Source: a virus (lineage: Duplodnaviria > Heunggongvirae > Uroviricota > Caudoviricetes). Taken from it: 7,318 nucleotides of DNA. Both the position numbers and the translations under genes were made by a program. Positions 1-6,291 of this stretch are shown here, piece by piece. The stretch is taken from positions 1 to 7,318 of IMG/VR virus record IMGVR_UViG_2531839446_000012, one strand, 5' to 3'. Positions within the stretch are counted from its first letter, which is position 1. The number at the start of each line of letters is the position of its first letter. Below the pieces are notes generated by a model. The model saw only the letters and a list, made by a program, of their open reading frames with translations. It ran no database searches and was not told the origin of the DNA.

Positions 1-68
1 CACCTCTCCACCGAAAGTCAGTGCTGGCTGTTTTTTTCCTTAATAAAGCATCTGTAACTGAAACAGTC

Positions 69-84
69 CGCATATTGATAATAT
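69..84. repeat. Left copy of perfect 16-bp direct repeat CGCATATTGATAATAT flanking the IS
   Basis: Identical 16-mer at 69-84 and 1421-1436, directly abutting both IS ends. Candidate target-site duplication, but far longer than the 3-5 bp usual for IS3-family elements. Confidence 0.9.
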
Positions 85-175
85 TGAGCTGGCCCCCTGA
101 AATACCAGACAGTAGATGTATCTTAAAATAAGAGATAGGCTTGGATATATGTCTAACACTAGTTCTAATTTTGAG

Positions 176-544
176 ATGGCTGGCGTTTTGTTAGGAAAAG
201 AGGTGCGTAAACGTAAAACACCTCAGGAAAAAATCGCAATTATTCAACAGACTATGGAGCCGGGCATGACGGTGTCCCACGTGGCGCGTTTGCATGGAAT
301 TCAGCCCAGTCTGTTGTTTAAGTGGAAGAAACAATATCAGGAAGGAAGCCTCACTGCTGTGGCTGCCGGTGAAGACGTTGTTCCTGCTTCTGAACTGGCC
401 GCTGCAATAAAGCAGATTAATCAGCTTCAGCGTTTACTGGGTAAGAAAACCATGGAAGTTGAGATCCTCAAAGAAGCGGTGGAGTATGCACAATCGCGAA
501 AATGGATAGCGCATGTGCCCTTGTTACCTTCGGACAAGGAATAG
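176..544 (+). CDS. IS3-family transposase OrfA (HTH DNA-binding, InsC-like)
   Basis: ORF-track frame 116-544; product from the ATG at 176 ([25 protein letters not shown]...[26 protein letters not shown]) aligns with IS2 InsC as recalled. The longest ORF starts at 116 but the first 20 codons have no counterpart in IS2 OrfA; 149 is another possible start. Confidence 0.8.
497..505 (+). other. Candidate -1 ribosomal frameshift site for OrfAB (CGA AAA TGG; A4 run 499-502)
   Basis: Only homopolymeric stretch in the orfA/orfB overlap; slipping back one base on AAAA puts the ATG at 502-504 in frame and joins ...AQSRK to MDSACALV... It is shorter than the A6G motif of IS911-type elements. Confidence 0.4.
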
Positions 545-1383
545 CCCCGGTAAGCCGTGTTCTGGGCGTGTCACGTGCGCAGTTAACATTAAGGATGAAG
601 GCATCTGATAACAAGCCAGATAAACGGCGTCAGAGGCGCGATGAGGCTGCGGATGCAGAAGTCTTATCGCGCATCCTGGATATCATTGGCGATATGCCAG
701 CATACGGGTATCGCCGTGTCTGGGCGATACTCAGGCGGCAGTCCCGAAATGAAGGACTACCGTTCGTGAATGCAAAGCGCGTTTACCGGATAATGAGCGA
801 AAATAGCCTGTTGTTGTTACATGACAAACCATCACGACGGCAGCGGGAACATAAAGGCCGAATATCGGTGAAGGAAAGCGACCAGCGTTGGTGTTCTGAT
901 GGCTTTGAGTTCGGTTGCGATGATGGCGAAAAACTGCGTGTTACGTTCGTCCTGGACTGTTGCGATCGTGAAGCCATAGACTGGGCCGCAAGCACGGGAG
1001 GTTACGATAAAGCGACAGTGCAGGATGTGATGTTAGGAGCGATAGAAAAACGCTTTGGCGATAAAGTACCGGAACAGTCCATCCAGTGGCTGACAGATAA
1101 CGGTTCAGCGTACAGAGCGCATGAAACACGGCAGTTCGCCAGAGAGCTGAATCTGAAGCCCTGCACAACGGCAATCAGTAGCCCCCAGAGTAATGGAATG
1201 GCAGAACGGTTCGTGAAAACGATGAAGGAAGACTACATCGCGTTCATGCCGAAACCAAATGTAAGAACGGCATTGCATAACCTTGCAGTGGCGATCGAGC
1301 ATTACAATGAAAACCATCCGCATAGTGCGTTGGGTTATCGCTCTCCGCGAGAATATCGACGTCAGCGGGTAATGTTAACTTAA
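502..1383 (+). CDS. IS3-family transposase OrfB (integrase/DDE catalytic core, InsD-like), probably made as an OrfAB fusion by -1 frameshift
   Basis: 293-aa ORF in the -1 frame relative to orfA, overlapping it by 43 nt; typical IS3/IS2 OrfB sequence (YRRVWAIL...WCSDGFEF...DNGSAY...[11 protein letters not shown]...[12 protein letters not shown]). Confidence 0.85.
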
Positions 1384-1420
1384 GATACAACCCCTGTCTG
1401 AAAATAAGGGGGCAAGAACA

Positions 1421-1436
1421 CGCATATTGATAATAT
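1421..1436. repeat. Right copy of perfect 16-bp direct repeat CGCATATTGATAATAT flanking the IS
   Basis: See left copy; 16/16 identity, same orientation. Confidence 0.9.
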
Positions 1437-1496
1437 ATTGACAGGCATCATTGCTGTCTGTGAAAAATAAGTCTCTACAAACATATAAGGCCTTTT

Positions 1497-1535
1497 AGCC
1501 AGCGTCTTCTTTCAGGTCAGTCGCTGGCTTTTTTT
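1497..1535 (+). terminator. Plus-strand hairpin plus T-run (possible intrinsic terminator), abutting the nanS-p stop
   Basis: AGCCAGCG (1497-1504) pairs with CGCTGGCT (1522-1529), 8 bp perfect, followed by T6-7 (1530-1535). The 17-nt loop is long, so confidence is low. On the minus strand the U-run precedes the stem, so it is not a minus-strand terminator. Confidence 0.3.
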
Positions 1536-1536
1536 A

Positions 1537-3387
1537 TTATGCTGCCGGTGCATTTATCTCCAGCACCAGACTTTCTATCTCAACGCCATACGCTGCATTT
1601 TTTGTAACATCCGTCAGCGTCAGCGCATTCAGTCCCAGTGTCAGACCGTCTTTTATAACCTGGAATGCCGGGCCAGCCACTCCATTCAGTTTCGGAGTAA
1701 CCGTGGCACTGCCGGCGGTGAACACCAGCTCCAGCGTCTGCCAGTCGTTACCGTAATCGCCGAACTCCCCCAGCTTCGTGTTTCCGGCTTTCCTGTGATG
1801 CATCAGATTCACTCTGCCGTCAGTGGTCTGAGTGAAGTACGACATCAGGAACGGATTACCGGTACCCGTCATCGCCACACCATCAGGAACGGGAGCATCC
1901 GTATACAGATAAATCCCCAGCCCGAACTGATTGTTGGTCAGTGCGCCTGACAGGCGGAACTTACAGGTCAGTCTGCCGCCCTGTGTCAGCAGGGTAATTG
2001 CGTCATCCACCGGATGCGTCAGGGACCAGGTTTTATTGCTCTGCTTGGTGATCTTAAATACACCATCTGACAACTGAATTCCGCCATCCTTAATGCTCCA
2101 GCCCTGCGCAGCAGCCTCTCCGGCTGCCGGCAGCAGGGAGATTGTGCGAACGGACGTATCTGCAGACGGACCCGATGGCGTGTTGCCGCCGGGCGAGGGT
2201 TTGATTTCCGGTGCCTTACCACTGATGAAGGCTGAGGTGCGCCCGGCTGCGTTCAGAATAGCGGTTGCCATACGATCCGGAATAATGCTCCTGCGCGCCC
2301 ATGAACTGAAATGTGTCGGGCGGTTTGATGATACCTGGTTTCCATTCGTTCTCGATGCCGCACCGTAATATCCTGATGCCGGAATATCCGGATCTTCTGC
2401 CGGCGCGTTAGTGGCGGTATTGACGCCGTTACCGTCTGTCATGAAGGGCACAAAATAAACGCCCTCACTCTCCCTGTTTTTATACGCGCCGTACACGGTG
2501 TCGTACTGCGTGCCGTAGGTATTTTTCCAGTAATACGTCGTGTCACCACAAATCCACGGCACATCTGCAGCACTGCCACCATGGCACTGCGCGTTAAACA
2601 CGGAGAGGTCAGCACGAAACTGTGTCAGCATGGCTGTAAACAGCGCAGGTTGCTGTGCGTGGGTGGCGGCGCTCATGTCAAACTCTCCCTGCATCCAGCA
2701 CACCGCCAGCAACACATTTTTCGGGTTCTTCTGTAATGCAGCTTTAGTGCGCGCAATCAGGTCCTGATATAACGGTTTACCCACACCCCAGCGTGCCGAA
2801 TCCTGGCTGGCCCCCGTGTCCGCACTGAATGTCCCCTCAGCGCCCTGGGTGAATGCAGAACCACCACGACAGCATGGTACCAGCAGGATCCCCGCGTTAT
2901 TCGGGATATACGGAAGCAGTTTTTTGGCAATATGTAAGCCCTGGCCGACACAGCCGTACTGCCCTTTGCTCAGGTCTGCCTTCGGATGATTCAGCGTACT
3001 CATATCCTGCACATCATGCAGGCAGTGGTCGGCCGGAATAATATCGTTATATCTGCAGGCAGCCCCACCCGGCGTAACTGTACTGCGGCGCGCCAGCTGT
3101 TTAATGCGCGGATCCGGAGCATCGTATGAATCCGGAAGCGGAAGCCCTTCCCCGTAAGCCATTGCATTGGACTGCCCGGCCAGTACGATGACGTAGTACC
3201 AATCCGGCTCAGTTGCACCACTGACCACCACATCACCTTCTGCTGCAATCGCCTGCATCAGGGTATAAGGGGTTATGGCCACCGGACTACCAAACGGCTG
3301 CCAGCCCTCTTTCAGTTTGTGTGTCAGCTTTTCCGCAAGGTCTGACGGCGACGCCGCCCTGACAACATCATAATGTTTAATCGACAT
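1537..3387 (-). CDS. nanS-p: Prophage sialate 9-O-acetylesterase, NanS-p type (N-terminal DUF1737-like, SASA/SGNH esterase core, C-terminal carbohydrate-binding region)
   Basis: Intact 616-aa ORF; N-terminus MSIKHYDVVRAASPSDLAEKLTHKLKEGWQPFGSPVAI and the esterase motif VLAGQSNAMAYG match the NanS-p proteins of EHEC lambdoid prophages as recalled. SD GGGAGA lies 7 nt upstream of the ATG at 3387. It sits downstream of the tRNA cluster, as in Stx phages. Confidence 0.85.
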   Translation of the reverse strand: MSIKHYDVVRAASPSDLAEKLTHKLKEGWQPFGSPVAITPYTLMQAIAAEGDVVVSGATEPDWYYVIVLAGQSNAMAYGEGLPLPDSYDAPDPRIKQLARRSTVTPGGAACRYNDIIPADHCLHDVQDMSTLNHPKADLSKGQYGCVGQGLHIAKKLLPYIPNNAGILLVPCCRGGSAFTQGAEGTFSADTGASQDSARWGVGKPLYQDLIARTKAALQKNPKNVLLAVCWMQGEFDMSAATHAQQPALFTAMLTQFRADLSVFNAQCHGGSAADVPWICGDTTYYWKNTYGTQYDTVYGAYKNRESEGVYFVPFMTDGNGVNTATNAPAEDPDIPASGYYGAASRTNGNQVSSNRPTHFSSWARRSIIPDRMATAILNAAGRTSAFISGKAPEIKPSPGGNTPSGPSADTSVRTISLLPAAGEAAAQGWSIKDGGIQLSDGVFKITKQSNKTWSLTHPVDDAITLLTQGGRLTCKFRLSGALTNNQFGLGIYLYTDAPVPDGVAMTGTGNPFLMSYFTQTTDGRVNLMHHRKAGNTKLGEFGDYGNDWQTLELVFTAGSATVTPKLNGVAGPAFQVIKDGLTLGLNALTLTDVTKNAAYGVEIESLVLEINAPAA

Positions 3388-3473
3388 CGAATTTCTCCCG
3401 TGTACAGGAACAGAGTTAAAAAGCCGGAACCGGAATCAAATCACAGGATGACCATCTGCCAGTGGCTGGTCGT

Positions 3474-3500
3474 AAAAAAAAGGCCGCGCCATGCGCAGCC
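3474..3500 (-). terminator. Rho-independent terminator (minus strand) between the membrane ORF and nanS-p
   Basis: Minus-strand RNA GGCUGCGC-AUG-GCGCGGCC (8-bp GC-rich stem, one G-U) followed by U8 (reverse complement of the A8 run at 3474-3481). Confidence 0.6.
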
Positions 3501-3701
3501 GGAAATAAAGGGATAACGATGATAGTTTGAGAAAAACAGAAATAACACTTTTGTGGCAAAGCATGGTGCCGGGTGCCTCCCGGTGAATTCAGTACCAGCA
3601 CCTGAATCCGCGATTATCCCATATACCTACTCGCTGATTGCCCCTCCGCACAGGGGGATTCACCATGCAGAAGTGTTTTTAATAAACAGCAAACAAAAAA
3701 A

Positions 3702-3869
3702 TCAAGCATTATGCAGGCTGTTTCTTTTTATCACCGGCCACAGCAATACCACAATGCCGCAGACCAGCACCCCATCCGCCAGCACCGACATGATTCTGCT
3801 GGTGAAATCCACCATCACCACCAGAAACAGCAGGAGTGCAGCCACAGTCAGGCGCAGTTTTACCGTCAC
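3702..3869 (-). CDS. Small hydrophobic membrane protein (55 aa, two predicted TM helices), translationally coupled to the TerB-like gene
   Basis: Not in the ORF track (GTG start, under 60 aa). The GTG at 3869-3867 overlaps the TerB-like stop as GTGA, with GGAG 10 nt upstream. Product MTVKLRLTVAALLLFLVVMVDFTSRIMSVLADGVLVCGIVVLLWPVIKRNSLHNA. Same strand and operon position as its neighbour. Confidence 0.35.
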   Translation of the reverse strand: MTVKLRLTVAALLLFLVVMVDFTSRIMSVLADGVLVCGIVVLLWPVIKRNSLHNA

Positions 3870-4298
3870 AGGTGATTCTCCAGACGAAGACCCAGAACAC
3901 CGGCAATCTCTTCCAGCACCTTGCGCTCTTCCGGCTCAATTTCGCCGTCTGCCTCCGCAATGGCCACCGCCACATCCAGCACATCTTCCGCTTCACGCGT
4001 ATCGTGTTTCACATCCTCGATCTCACGTAACGCCGCACGACGACCAATTTTAAAGTTCGTATCCAGCTGACCGATAATGGTTGCGCTAATCGCATTAATT
4101 TCTGACGTAAACGCGGACAGCGCAGGCTGATTACGCAGTACCTGTTCGATCTTCGCTTTCTAGGAAGCCTCACATTCACCATCTGCACAGGCCACCAGGT
4201 ATGCGGCGTTAATCACCACCTGTGCCAGATCGCGTTTTTCAAACTTTTTAATTTCCGTTGCCGCTCTGCGGGCTTTTTTTACCAAAAATACCAAACAT
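3866..4298 (-). pseudogene. TerB-like (tellurite-resistance TerB domain) gene carrying a +1 frameshift and an in-frame amber codon
   Basis: ATG at 4298-4296 with AAGGA SD gives MFGIFGKK, then the frame breaks in the A7 run (plus T7 at 4274-4280). The downstream frame reads ARRAATEIKKFEKRDLAQVVINAAYLVACADGECEAS*KAKIEQVL...DVLDVAVAIAEADGEIEPEERKVLEEIAGVLGLRLENHL, with TAG at 4162-4160. The two ADG...E..K repeats are the TerB signature as recalled. Removing one A restores a single frame. Confidence 0.7.
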
Positions 4299-4430
4299 CG
4301 TGACGTTCCTTTGGGTGGGTGAGCCAACGCCCGGAAGCGATCTGCCCACAGAGAAAGTCACACTGACCACTCCGTAAGCTCACCCCCGAAAGGCTCTGTG
4401 GTTGATATGCACCGGGCGTGGCGCAGATAC

Positions 4431-4455
4431 AAAAAAGGCCCGCCGAAGCGAGCCT
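4431..4455 (-). terminator. Rho-independent terminator (minus strand) 12 nt after tRNA-Arg
   Basis: Minus-strand RNA AGGCUCGC-UUCG-GCGGGCCU (8-bp stem, UUCG tetraloop) followed by a U5-6 run. Confidence 0.65.
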
Positions 4456-4467
4456 GGAAAATAAGTG

Positions 4468-4544
4468 TGGCGCGTTGTAGTGGAGTCGAACCAGTGACCG
4501 ATTGCTTAGAAGGCAATTGCTCTGTCCGGCTGAGCTAACAACGC
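4468..4544 (-). tRNA. tRNA-Arg (anticodon UCU), phage argN/argO-like
   Basis: Hand-folded cloverleaf: acceptor GCGTTGT/ACAACGC, D-arm GCTC...GAGC, anticodon stem ATTGC/GCAAT with loop CTTCTAA, T-loop TTCGACT, discriminator G, encoded CCA. One C-C mismatch in the T-stem. Confidence 0.8.
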
Positions 4545-4644
4545 AGAATACCGATAATGGACCGCCATCGGGGACCCGCCCCCGCACCAACAACCCTGTT
4601 ATGGTGTCGTCTGCTCTTCCTGATAAGCTAATGGCGGTATGTGA

Positions 4645-4720
4645 TGGTGGCCCTTGCTGGATTTGAACCAGCGACCTGGCGATTATGAGTCGCTCGCTCT
4701 CACCACTGAGCTAAAGGGCC
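4645..4720 (-). tRNA. tRNA-Ile2 (anticodon CAU, ileX/ileZ-like; formally could be tRNA-Met)
   Basis: 76-nt cloverleaf GGCCCTTTAGCTCAGTGGTGAGAGCGAGCGACTCATAATCGCCAGGTCGCTGGTTCAAATCCAGCAAGGGCCACCA: 7-bp acceptor, T-arm GCTGG-TTCAAAT-CCAGC, anticodon loop CTCATAA. Very close to E. coli ileX as recalled. Confidence 0.85.
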
Positions 4721-4769
4721 GGGACCAGAATAATAATGGTGCGAAATTAATTCTGCAATCTCATCCGTT

Positions 4770-5820
4770 TCAAACGATTAAATCCTGAACTTCCCTGACT
4801 GTCTGCTCAAAACGTTCAGTCTCCAGCTCAACGCCAATTGCACGACGCCCGAGCGCCAGTGCCGCTTTTACCGTTGAACCTGAGCCCATAAAAAAATCTG
4901 CAACCAGGTCACCCGGACGACTGCTTGCGCTGATTATCTGCTGCAGCATTTCTGCCGGTTTTTCGCACGGATGTTTCCCGGGATAGAACTGCACCGGTTT
5001 ATGTGTCCACACATCCGTGTACGGCACCTGCGCCGTCACACCAAAATACCGCCGCAGATGCTTATATTCACTCTGCAGCTCCGCATACTGTCGGTTCAGA
5101 GAGGCATACGTATCCACCAGCTGGTGGTGGGGCTTTTCCAGTTCACCCCGCTGATGCTTCTCTTCTGCCACCCGGGCAAACAGTGCCTGTAATTTCAGAT
5201 AATCGCTTTCGTTCGGCAGCTGCCACTGACCGGCACTGAACCAGTGCGACACCATGTTTTTCTTTCCTGTGGCATCTGCAATCTGTTTTGCCGTTATCCC
5301 CAGGACAGCGCGCGCATCACGAAAGTAAGCAATCAGCGGGGCCATCACATGCTGTTTCAGTGCCCTACCCTTCGCCTCATACCCGGCATCTTTCGGACGA
5401 TACGGCCCCTGATAATGCTCTGCGAACAGAATGCGCTCTGTGGCGGGGAAATACGCCCGCAGGCTTTCCTTGTTGCACCCGTTCCAGCGTCCGGACGGCT
5501 TTTGCCCAGATGATATGGTTCAGCACGTTAAACCGCTCACGCATCATGATTTCGGTGTCAGATGCCAGACGATGGCCACAGAACAGGTAAAGACTTCCGG
5601 CAGGTTTCAGCACCCGCCAGAACTGCGCAAGACACTGGTCCAGCCACTTCAGGTAATCTTCATCACCCGCCCACTGGTTATCCCAGCCCTCGGGTTTCAC
5701 TTTGAAGTACGGCGGGTCCGTGACTATCAGGTCAACAGAATTTTCGGGTAACGACCGCATAAATTCCAGGCAGTCGGCGTTGATTAACTCACAACTGGAT
5801 ATTTTTACAGTATTAAGCAT
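4770..5820 (-). pseudogene. Orphan DNA N6-adenine methyltransferase (beta class, N6_N4_Mtase family), split by a +1 frameshift as given
   Basis: N-terminal ORF 5377-5820 has motif IV (DLIVTDPPYF) and NHIIWAK; C-terminal ORF 4770-5348 has HPCEKP and motif I (DFFMGSGST). After WAK the N frame becomes Arg-rich junk, while the +1 frame continues plausibly (PSGRWNGCNKESLRAYFPATERILFAEHYQGPYRP...). Break is at the T4 run 5500-5503 (expected T3). No restriction enzyme gene nearby. Confidence 0.7.
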
Positions 5821-5852
5821 GGATCATTAAGCCTGTCTCTGATAGGCTCATT

Positions 5853-5871
5853 CTGCTTTTGCGCAAAGCAG
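5853..5871 (-). other. Stem-loop (7-bp stem, 5-nt loop) in the MTase leader
   Basis: CTGCTTT (5853-5859) pairs with AAAGCAG (5865-5871); no U-run follows. Confidence 0.3.
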
Positions 5872-5912
5872 TGGGCCTGAGGTTTGCTTGTGAACCCAAC
5901 GCATGAGCAGAT

Positions 5913-5943
5913 GGCTGGTGGGTGCCCCTTACACCCACCAGCC
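5913..5943 (-). other. Perfect 12-bp inverted repeat with 7-nt loop in the MTase leader
   Basis: GGCTGGTGGGTG (5913-5924) and CACCCACCAGCC (5932-5943) are exact reverse complements; loop CCCCTTA. No U-run on either strand, so not a canonical terminator. Confidence 0.4.
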
Positions 5944-5960
5944 GCCCATTTACCACAAAT

Positions 5961-5984
5961 AAAAAAGCCTTCAGGACTGAAGGC
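5961..5984 (-). terminator. Rho-independent terminator (minus strand) overlapping the stop of the small wHTH ORF
   Basis: Minus-strand RNA GCCUUCAG-UC-CUGAAGGC (7-8 bp stem) followed by UUUUUUAUUU. Confidence 0.6.
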
Positions 5985-6168
5985 GTCTGTAACAACCAAA
6001 CTGATAGTCTGCCAGACCCGCCATAACCAGCTGGGTCAGTATTAACTGGCAGCGTTCGCGTGAAAGGTAAGTATTCTGCGCAATCTCCCCGACTGTCGCC
6101 GGGTCGGTAACGCTTAATTCATTAAACACCACTCTGGCGGTTTCTGTCATATCCTGCTGTTTCAGCAT
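5971..6168 (-). CDS. Small winged-helix/HTH DNA-binding protein (65 aa), function unknown
   Basis: Internal ATG of ORF-track entry 5971-6291, product MLKQQDMTETARVVFNELSVTDPATVGEIAQNTYLSRERCQLILTQLVMAGLADYQFGCYRRLQS; the N-terminal extension is rejected because it crosses the upstream terminator and looks non-protein-like. HTH-like segment TVGEIAQNTYLSRERCQLILTQLVMAGL; weak SD AAGGG upstream. Confidence 0.45.
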   Translation of the reverse strand: MLKQQDMTETARVVFNELSVTDPATVGEIAQNTYLSRERCQLILTQLVMAGLADYQFGCYRRLQS

Positions 6169-6291
6169 GTCTTTTTCCCTTTTCCGGTTAACGTGACACA
6201 CCAATAACTCTTGTCGAAAAAGCCAGCAACCTGAAAGAACGGTATTAATAACCACCAGCGAATTTATTGCGCTGCTGTATATTACGGACAC

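Follow-up and report, generated by a model that had tools for sequence, protein, structure and literature searches.

Two of the three dispersed copies of a short motif in the window, a 7,318-nucleotide stretch of DNA, are very probably the Rho-independent terminators of the PasA sRNA locus, which occupies the nanS-p/holin spacer and is read against the late operon. These two copies, A and B, are probably Hfq-binding 3' modules as well. The window covers the late region of a lambdoid Escherichia coli prophage whose late genes are on the minus strand. The assignment rests on sequence identity to PasA, agreement with published RNA ends, covariation of the hairpin stems, and a local duplication. 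The initial annotation had reported three related stretches, all of which were present, and had read them either as decayed copies of a small palindromic element or as a recurring terminator module. The second reading holds for copies A and B, each a stem-loop followed by U7 at a mapped PasA 3' end, but not for copy C. The observation is real but ordinary: two of the three "copies" are the terminator hairpins of an already described prophage sRNA of the PasA/PasC family. The features are listed in Table 1.

Table 1. Positions of the motif copies and neighbouring features in the window
Feature	Position	Strand	Basis
Copy B, last 37 nt of PasA	1..37	+	100% identity to PasA nt 49-85, E. coli E2348/69 (NC_011601 743499->743415, minus strand)
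Unit A, first part	38..84	+	Follows the PasA terminator and is part of the 236-nt minor PasA; long PasA aligns through it in L002
ISEc48-like IS3-family insertion sequence	85..1420	+	orfA 116-544, orfB 502-1383; transposase domains
Unit A, second part	1437..1496	+	Alignment of long PasA nt 117-236 to 1421-1538
Copy A, predicted terminator hairpin	1497..1535	+	Fold, terminator scan, PasA/PasC alignment, stem covariation
nanS-p (SASA-family sialate O-acetylesterase)	1537..3387	-	ORF call; RefSeq annotation of relatives
Copy C, look-alike word AAAAAGCCAGCAACCTGAAAGAAC	6217..6240	+	In a conserved ~110-nt leader; no hairpin; background-level score

In EPEC strain E2348/69, PasA is expressed as an Hfq-stabilised RNA of ~85 nt, as established by Northern blot and RIL-seq (PMC8550237). 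It is encoded on the minus strand of NC_011601, from 743499 to 743415 for the major, 85-nt form and to 743264 for the minor, 236-nt form (Table S6, PMC8550237). These sizes were corroborated by Northern blots and the stability of the RNA was Hfq-dependent; the ends derive from RNA-seq coverage and Northern sizes rather than from nucleotide-resolution 3' mapping (PMC8550237). The window begins inside this RNA. What the window retains of copy B is a portion of the terminator loop, then the 3' arm GTGCTGGCT (21-29) and the U7 tract (31-37), with positions 11-37 resembling copy A. In L002, an uninterrupted relative that matches PasA nt 12-85, the same site carries a complete 9-bp hairpin, consisting of AGCCAGCAC, a 17-nt loop, and GTGCTGGCT, then T7, with a folding energy of -17 to -21 kcal/mol. 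The 5' arm lies just beyond the window start, so copy B, which had been described as degenerate, is a full hairpin truncated by the window edge. PasA nt 1-48, with the 5' arm and the seed GCCAGCACCU, are outside the window, and only the CACCU of the seed is visible at its start. Both L002 and E2348/69 have the seed, in the terminator's 5' arm. With no more than 37 nt of PasA in the window, the promoter, the seed, and the variant type (PasA or PasA-2) are not visible in it. A simple terminator scan did not detect hairpin B since its 17-nt loop exceeds the 8-nt limit of the scan. In the E2348/69 sequence, the 85-nt PasA ends at the last T after hairpin B, and the PasA Northern probe, GCCAGCACTGACTTTCGGTGGAGAG, corresponds to the late-strand 5' arm and loop of this hairpin.

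Copy A is complete within the window. On the plus strand, AGCCAGCG (1497-1504) and CGCTGGCT (1522-1529) form an 8-bp stem around a 17-nt loop, and the T7 run that follows extends to 1535, one base from the nanS-p stop codon (1537-1539) on the opposite strand. This hairpin had been assigned to the minus strand; its presence and its position beside the stop codon were confirmed, but the data presented below place its function on the plus strand. In L002, the hairpin folded below shuffled sequences on both strands (z = -3.0 and -2.4). At this site, the terminator scan reported a smaller alternative plus-strand stem (1514-1530) with the T-run. In E2348/69, the 236-nt PasA ends at 743264, which is 3 nt past the T-run of the hairpin A counterpart and next to the esterase stop codon. 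Thus, at the resolution of RNA-seq coverage, the two published ends fall at (743415) and 3 nt after (743264) the two T-runs. The 3' half of the long form aligns with the window through hairpin A (Table 1). The window differs from the E2348/69 locus in three ways: it has 2 nt fewer in the hairpin A loop, it includes PasA only from nt 49 on, and ISEc48 separates the terminators.

The genomic slot of the hairpins is that of PasA. The published orientation of PasA is '> < >' between E2348C_0688 (esterase) and E2348C_0689 (holin) (PMC8550237). A recent survey likewise placed pasA and pasC between esterase and holin-lysozyme genes, described a 3' stem-loop and poly-U in all Pas sRNAs, and concluded that PasA and PasC have a common origin (Zhu, Shabalina and Storz 2026). 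The esterase/holin layout of E2348/69 is that of the window's locus: the 3' end of nanS-p converges on the PasA locus, the holin gene lies ~300 nt past the window start in the uninterrupted relatives L001 and L002, and the sRNA is read opposite to both genes. PasA of E2348/69 prophage PP2, with its EHEC homologues EcOnc51/EcOnc52, resembles the window in slot (esterase > < pasA > holin) and strand; its major form ends at hairpin B and U7 and its 236-nt minor form at hairpin A and U7. Recognition of the PasA/PasC locus explains the occurrence of an A-run and a hairpin against the nanS-p stop codon.

The second family member, PasC of E2348/69 prophage PP5, has a body homologous to that of PasA. 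Its terminator stem (GCCAGCG/CGCTGGC) and U7 are those of copy A, stand directly against the esterase stop codon, and align to window positions 1493-1535; the PasC probe, CGCTGGCTAAAACGGGTAGATGTAC, corresponds to the A-type stem and its flank. Relative to copy A, the PasC stem is longer (GCCAGCGYCC/GGACGCTGGC) and the loop, of 8 nt, is different; the PasC hairpin is also the sole one in its spacer, whereas the window has two. In common with canonical Rho-independent terminators of Hfq-dependent sRNAs, the window's hairpins have a GC-rich stem, at least seven U's, and an A/U-rich single-stranded stretch before the stem. They depart from the canonical form in their 17-nt loops; in addition, the proposed PasA seed is in the terminator 5' arm, a location that Zhu et al. 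(2026) called unusual. Loops of this length are long for an intrinsic terminator and are a point against our reading.

Copy C does not belong with the other two: its resemblance to them is due to chance, and it is unrelated leader sequence of the first ORF after tR'. This ORF, of 65 aa (6168..5971, minus strand), follows a tR'-like terminator, and copy C is 48 nt ahead of its ATG, in a 5' leader and not at an RNA 3' end. Hairpin A stands at a gene 3' end, beside the nanS-p stop codon; copy C does not. Nor does copy C have two arms: no hairpin was found on either strand (z = +0.45 and +1.0). Using copy A as query against the window, B and C were the best non-self local alignments (scores of 30 and 30; next, 23). 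Among 300 dinucleotide-preserving shuffles, 0.7% gave a best hit of at least 30, and none gave a second-best hit that high. The two best hits exceed the shuffles, but such a null model is too lenient, since it takes no account of the composition of real sequence. Indeed, unrelated words combining an A-run with GCCAGC scored 29 (933W-type tR'), 28 (the terminator upstream of the holin gene), and 27 (an unrelated AAAAAAGCCAG word) against copy A. Phages that differ in their Q/pR'/tR' modules conserve this leader, usually with AAGCTG and not AACCTG, and in related phage DNA this usual form scores 25-27, which is the background of real DNA.

It is improbable that copy C is instead a true decayed inverted copy of the terminator module, left at a mosaic junction downstream of tR'. 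Its tied best score in the window would fit such an origin, as would the GCCAGC/GCTGGC stem that 933W-type tR' uses in the copy C orientation and the hairpin remnants found at the mosaic joint in 933W-like spacers (AAAAAGTGAGCCAGTC...). However, the complementary arm was absent from all 49 leader variants, with no fold, and RNAalifold yielded only a G.U-rich helix with no compensatory pair. Moreover, the window's CAGGTTG is the minority form, the common CAGCTTG reducing the score to that of the unrelated hits, and the loop words matching copy C (CTGAAAGAA) are not conserved among A-type hairpins.

The structure of the terminator stems is maintained among variants. All 96 cells of the 8-bp stem alignment were paired and three pairs showed compensatory double changes. 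The covariation score was 0.267 compared to 0.116 in shuffles, none of 500 of which reached the observed value, and the signal collapsed when the partners were slid by 1-3 columns. Phages with a single hairpin carry either a B-type stem (L043 and L024, with compensatory GCCAGTAC/GTACTGGC) or an A-type stem (the PasC arrangement), in each case directly after the esterase stop codon, so the A and B positions are equivalent.

The variants also bear on the strand. U7 was always on the plus strand, and the late strand lacked a U tract after the stem in all 12 variants, with an invariant A-run ahead of the stem instead. As the late strand has A7 ahead of the hairpins and no U tract, late transcription would not be terminated there. 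Further, a separate canonical late-direction terminator occurs just upstream of the holin gene, and the experimentally detected RNA is on the strand opposite to the late transcript. It is thus very unlikely that the hairpins act on the late (minus-strand) transcript, whether as the nanS-p terminator or as 3' stem-loops protecting the stx/nanS-p message from exonucleases, even though hairpin A begins right after the nanS-p stop codon and the late-strand RNA folds as well as the other strand (-18.4 and -20.8 kcal/mol). A paper on the nanS-p flanking region makes no mention of hairpins. Wobble pairs give mixed evidence: a U.G pair in the rare variant L069 works only on the late strand, whereas wobble pairing in the common PasC-type stem works only on the sRNA strand. 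Overall, the wobble evidence leans towards the sRNA strand. The hairpins may have a stabilising side-effect on the late mRNA.

Judged by alignment, terminators A and B head two diverged tandem copies of a ~150-nt unit. Unit A scored 49 against unit B, while 500 shuffles scored 19.1 ± 3.2 with a maximum of 33, and PasA with 40 upstream nt aligned with unit A over its whole length. Three elements in the second part of unit A, namely a TTGACA box, a GACAG..CTGTC stem, and an A/U-rich linker, have equivalents in pasA or in the sequence upstream of it; unit A also carries the stretch GGCAUCAUUGCUGUCUGUGAAAAAUAAGUCUCUACAAACAUAUAAGGCC. In uninterrupted relatives, the hairpins are 148 nt apart. The likeness of A and B reflects tandem duplication of the unit and subsequent divergence, and the possibility raised at the outset, that the motif is part of a longer duplicated fragment, applies to these two copies. 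The arrangement is similar to tandem terminators and duplicated sRNA genes (OmrA/B, PrrF1/2) in that homologous units, each with a terminator, lie head-to-tail ~150 nt apart. Unlike in OmrA/B and PrrF1/2, the downstream unit has diverged strongly and has been recorded only as the PasA 3' extension, the terminator of this diverged copy defining the long PasA isoform.

We tentatively raise the possibility, which we consider doubtful, that positions 38-84 and 1437-1535 together represent a diverged pasA paralogue that is or was an sRNA gene in its own right and not only the tail of the 236-nt species. If so, local tandem duplication would account for part of the growth of the Pas family. The 2026 survey reached the opposite conclusion (Zhu, Shabalina and Storz), which may be explained by BLAST with PasA missing so diverged a copy. 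ISEc48 would, in that case, have cut the putative promoter region from the second gene in the window. Sigma-70 promoter prediction for a plus-strand transcript yielded only weak 9-of-12 matches, in numbers no higher than in shuffles, and carries no weight in the assignment. Two further candidates were rejected. A 30-aa late-strand ORF between the hairpins (MFVETYF..., AAGG upstream) showed mostly non-synonymous changes and loss of the stop codon in L070. The proposal that the hairpins terminate an oppositely oriented 90-aa ORF located between the holin and lysozyme genes (L002 2005-2277) was superseded by the PasA mapping; the ORF itself had no Pfam match.

It is extremely unlikely that the three copies descend by decay from a small mobile or dispersed palindromic repeat (REP/BIME-, ERIC- or MITE-like): the motif does occur three times in 7.3 kb, oftener than shuffles allow, and one copy is palindromic, but neither strand matched a degenerate REP consensus at ≤3 mismatches, Rfam (whole window, E ≤ 1) returned no repeat or RNA family at any of the copies, the hairpin was confined to the esterase-holin spacer in 160 related loci with no terminal repeats or target duplications around it, and the two real copies are accounted for by tandem duplication, the third being at background level. 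The hairpins resemble REP/BIME units in being extragenic GC-rich palindromes at gene 3' ends; they differ in sequence, in their restricted distribution among those loci, and in the U7 adjoining each hairpin. The reconstructed spacer, including ~120 nt of the nanS-p 3' end, was present at a median of one place, and a maximum of 11, in the genomes having it, which is consistent with a prophage-borne sequence.

According to the terminator assignment, pasA transcription would mostly stop at hairpin B and its U7 to yield the 85-nt PasA, with the 5' arm of the hairpin carrying the proposed seed. A minority of transcripts would read ~150 nt further and stop at hairpin A and its U7, against the esterase stop codon, to yield the 236-nt species. 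The duplicated unit consists of a promoter-like box, a 5' stem, a linker, and a terminator, and phages with one hairpin, such as those with the PasC arrangement, probably arose by recombination between the two hairpins. Beyond annotation, the importance of these hairpins is small: they mark PasA/PasC, a validated sRNA locus associated with virulence and missing from standard genome annotation.

We infer that termination and read-through in the window's strain are as published, and the effect of the insertion sequence is likewise deduced. Copies A and B do bracket this element, as had been noted, but the bracketing is incidental, given the short distance between the hairpins in uninterrupted relatives. 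ISEc48 has inserted between the two terminators; this should leave the short PasA as it is, while read-through transcripts would run into the element, making the strain a natural test of the role of the long PasA isoform. Over 1-1336, the insertion sequence agrees at 99.3% with annotated ISEc48 copies; a 16-bp target duplication, CGCATATTGATAATAT, lies on either side of it, at 69-84 and 1421-1436. The empty site, reconstructed, was found at 99.7% over 308 nt.

All three stretches grouped as one motif in the initial annotation were present: copy A at 1497-1535, copy B at 1-37 and copy C at 6217-6240. Copy A forms the hairpin described, with an 8-bp stem (1497-1504 with 1522-1529), a 17-nt loop and a plus-strand T-run to 1535. 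Copy B (about 11-37), described as degenerate, seems so because the window begins inside its loop; in L002, a relative without the IS interruption, it has a complete 9-bp stem (AGCCAGCAC/GTGCTGGCT), a 17-nt loop and T7. The best non-self local alignments to A within the window were B and C (30 each; next, 23). Dinucleotide shuffles reached 30 in 0.7% of cases for the best match and never for the second-best, and the resemblance thus exceeds the shuffle null. As A-runs beside GC-rich stems are frequent in such DNA and the shuffle is blind to them, the search was repeated in approximately 160 related phage loci. The grouping held for A and B; it did not for C, which lacked a hairpin and scored at the level of unrelated words.

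Copies A and B are homologous, based on four lines of evidence besides the motif. The ~150-nt units that they head, units A and B, aligned far past the motif, as parts of a longer duplicated fragment would (score 49 versus 19.1 ± 3.2, maximum 33, in 500 shuffles), and shared blocks including TTTTC.ACAGACAG and TGTCAA.ATATT. Architectures of the esterase-holin spacer were surveyed in 80 phage contigs with nanS-p, the sialate O-acetylesterase gene. Some spacers had two hairpins, as in the window; others had a lone A-type stem (GCCAGCGYCC/GGACGCTGGC) followed directly by the sequence normally behind hairpin B, or a lone B-type hairpin, carrying the compensatory pair GCCAGTAC/GTACTGGC, right behind the esterase stop codon; another variant had CGCCAGCGTA/TACGCTGGCG. 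The A and B positions are therefore equivalent, and two- and one-hairpin spacers differ by one 148-nt unit. Among 12 distinct aligned variants, 96 of 96 stem cells were paired, with double compensatory changes in three of the eight pairs. The covariation score, 0.267 versus 0.116 for shuffled alignments, was reached in 0 of 500 and was lost on sliding partners by 1-3 columns. On the late (minus) strand, every variant kept the A-run 5′ of the stem and none had a T-run 3′ of it. Thus, the hairpins are canonical terminators for the plus strand only, against the late operon; a separate late-direction terminator lies just upstream of the holin gene. Among the alternative spacer types, the one most frequent in the sample (L006, L016, L040 and others; possibly 933W-like) had AAAAAGTGAGCCAGTC about 0-30 nt past the nanS-p stop; this is a relic of the A-run and 5′ arm followed by unrelated sequence, which places a mosaic joint inside the hairpin.

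A and B are terminators of the already-known PasA/PasC sRNA locus, and their biology is ordinary and already described. Pas sRNAs of E. coli E2348/69 were validated by Northern blot as Hfq-stabilised RNAs (Pearl Mizrahi et al., PMC8550237). In NC_011601, PasA is encoded on the minus strand and runs from 743499 to 743415 in the major form (85 nt) or to 743264 in the minor one (236 nt; Table S6, PMC8550237). It lies between E2348C_0688 and E2348C_0689 in the orientation '> < >', and has EHEC homologues EcOnc51/52 (PMC8550237). In the E2348/69 regions retrieved, E2348C_0688 is a SASA esterase and its neighbour a holin. There, the 85-nt form of PasA stops at the final T behind hairpin B, and the 236-nt form stops 3 nt past the hairpin A T-run, against the esterase stop codon. 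PasA nt 49-85 were 100% identical to window plus strand 1-37, while window 1421-1538 aligned with long PasA nt 117-236 and 1493-1535 with the PasC terminator. The PasA Northern probe, GCCAGCACTGACTTTCGGTGGAGAG (PMC8550237), corresponds exactly to hairpin B's 5′ arm and loop as read on the late strand, and the PasC probe, CGCTGGCTAAAACGGGTAGATGTAC (PMC8550237), to the 3′ arm and flank, read on the same strand, of the single A-type hairpin. The proposal of a recurring terminator module is thus borne out for A and B, which match PasA RNA ends, and not for C. Zhu, Shabalina and Storz (bioRxiv 2026) described the order esterase-pasA/pasC-holin-lysozyme. They reported that all Pas sRNAs carry a 3′ stem-loop and poly-U, that the seed of PasA overlaps the terminator stem, and that PasA and PasC share an origin. 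In the window's strain, pasA would be read on the plus strand, the majority of transcripts ending at hairpin B and its U7 and a minority reading through ~150 nt to end at hairpin A and its U7.

Judging from the alignments, the pasA unit has a diverged tandem copy, which occupies the stretch from the PasA terminator to the esterase stop codon. Such a copy next to pasA is stated neither in Pearl Mizrahi et al. nor in Zhu et al.; the latter judged pasA copies not to be products of tandem duplication, the closest pair being 22 kb apart (Zhu et al. 2026). A BLAST search with PasA would overlook so diverged a copy. The unit is rather unlikely to be expressed as an RNA of its own.

Copy C is treated as a chance look-alike. 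Its tie with B in the window (30 against A) would fit an ancient relic of the terminator module. However, neither strand forms a hairpin at 6217-6240, no variant carries a complementary arm, and RNAalifold found no compensatory pairs. The great majority of the 80 loci had the word in the form AAGCTGAAAGA, and only about 14 had the window's AACCTGAAAGA. The common form scored 25-27 against A, no better than a 933W-type tR′ (29), the late-direction terminator upstream of the holin gene (28) or another unrelated word, AAAAAAGCCAG (27). Loop words matching C vary even among A-type hairpins. A relic is accordingly very improbable. The 65-aa ORF has its ATG 48 nt downstream of copy C, which sits within a ~110-nt leader conserved downstream of tR′ despite quite different Q/pR′/tR′ modules. 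At least four tR′ and Q/pR′ module types precede this leader (6169-6290, minus strand), which was conserved in L083-L162. Inside it, a small hairpin can be seen by eye that RNAalifold did not detect; it has a UGAAUA loop and a GGTCG/CGACC, CGG/CCG or GGT/ACC stem. The other proposal, decayed copies of a small palindromic element, is rejected in the sense of a mobile repeat: A, B and C matched no Rfam family, no REP-like consensus was matched at ≤3 mismatches, and A/B-type hairpins occurred only in the esterase-holin spacer in all DNA examined.

The window comes from a lambdoid E. coli prophage and represents its late region, whose genes lie on the minus strand.

Features of the window
Feature	Position	Strand	Remark
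RusA	7308..6949	-	
DUF1133/Q-like protein	6952..6410	-	
tR′-like terminator, GCCACCGGAAGGTGG + T7	6292-6316	-	~100 nt downstream of DUF1133/Q-like gene
Short ORF, 65 aa	6168..5971	-	weak winged-helix-like match
DNA methyltransferase, two ORFs	5820..5377 and 5348..4770	-	
tRNA	4720..4645	-	ARAGORN 'Met', anticodon CAT
tRNA	4544..4468	-	
TerB pseudogene	about 3870-4327	-	
DUF3927	3869..3702	-	
STnc100-family sRNA match	3697..3525	-	Rfam 101.5 bits, E 7e-22
nanS-p, sialate esterase	3387..1537	-	
ISEc48-like IS3-family element	85-1420		16-bp direct repeat on either side (69-84, 1421-1436)

In relatives with an empty IS site, the holin gene lies ~300 nt past the window's first base. The tR′-like terminator region may yield a short pR′-tR′ RNA, as with StxS. 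The methyltransferase, a single intact 1050-nt CDS in L002 versus two ORFs here, is probably a frameshift pseudogene; the TerB-family gene has an internal stop in relatives as well. The tRNA that ARAGORN called 'Met' is annotated in RefSeq as tRNA-Ile in the identical L002 gene and is presumably of the phage ileZ type, reading Ile once lysidine-modified. The STnc100 match is directly upstream of nanS-p. STnc100 and PasD have a common ancestor, and pasD2 occupies exactly this position in E2348/69 (Zhu et al. 2026); Pas-type sRNA loci therefore flank nanS-p on both sides in the window.

The rebuilt empty site (1-84 joined to 1437 onwards) matched other E. coli genomes at 99.7% identity over 308 nt. 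The IS would remove the long PasA isoform and leave the 85-nt RNA intact. Target duplications of the IS3 family are usually 3-5 bp, and those of ISEc48 are far longer: 15-16 bp in four of four copies examined (16 bp in the window; 16, 15 and 15 bp in dcuC, an LPS heptosyltransferase gene and cvaB; L163, L164 and L165). The spacer point ..TCAATATGCGGAT.. (window ~69-90) was hit independently by ISEc48 in the window, IS629 in L051 and unrelated DNA in L053, the latter two ~140 nt past the nanS-p stop. Three independent interruptions at the same few bases suggest an insertion or recombination hot spot beside the ATATT-N3-AATAT palindrome.
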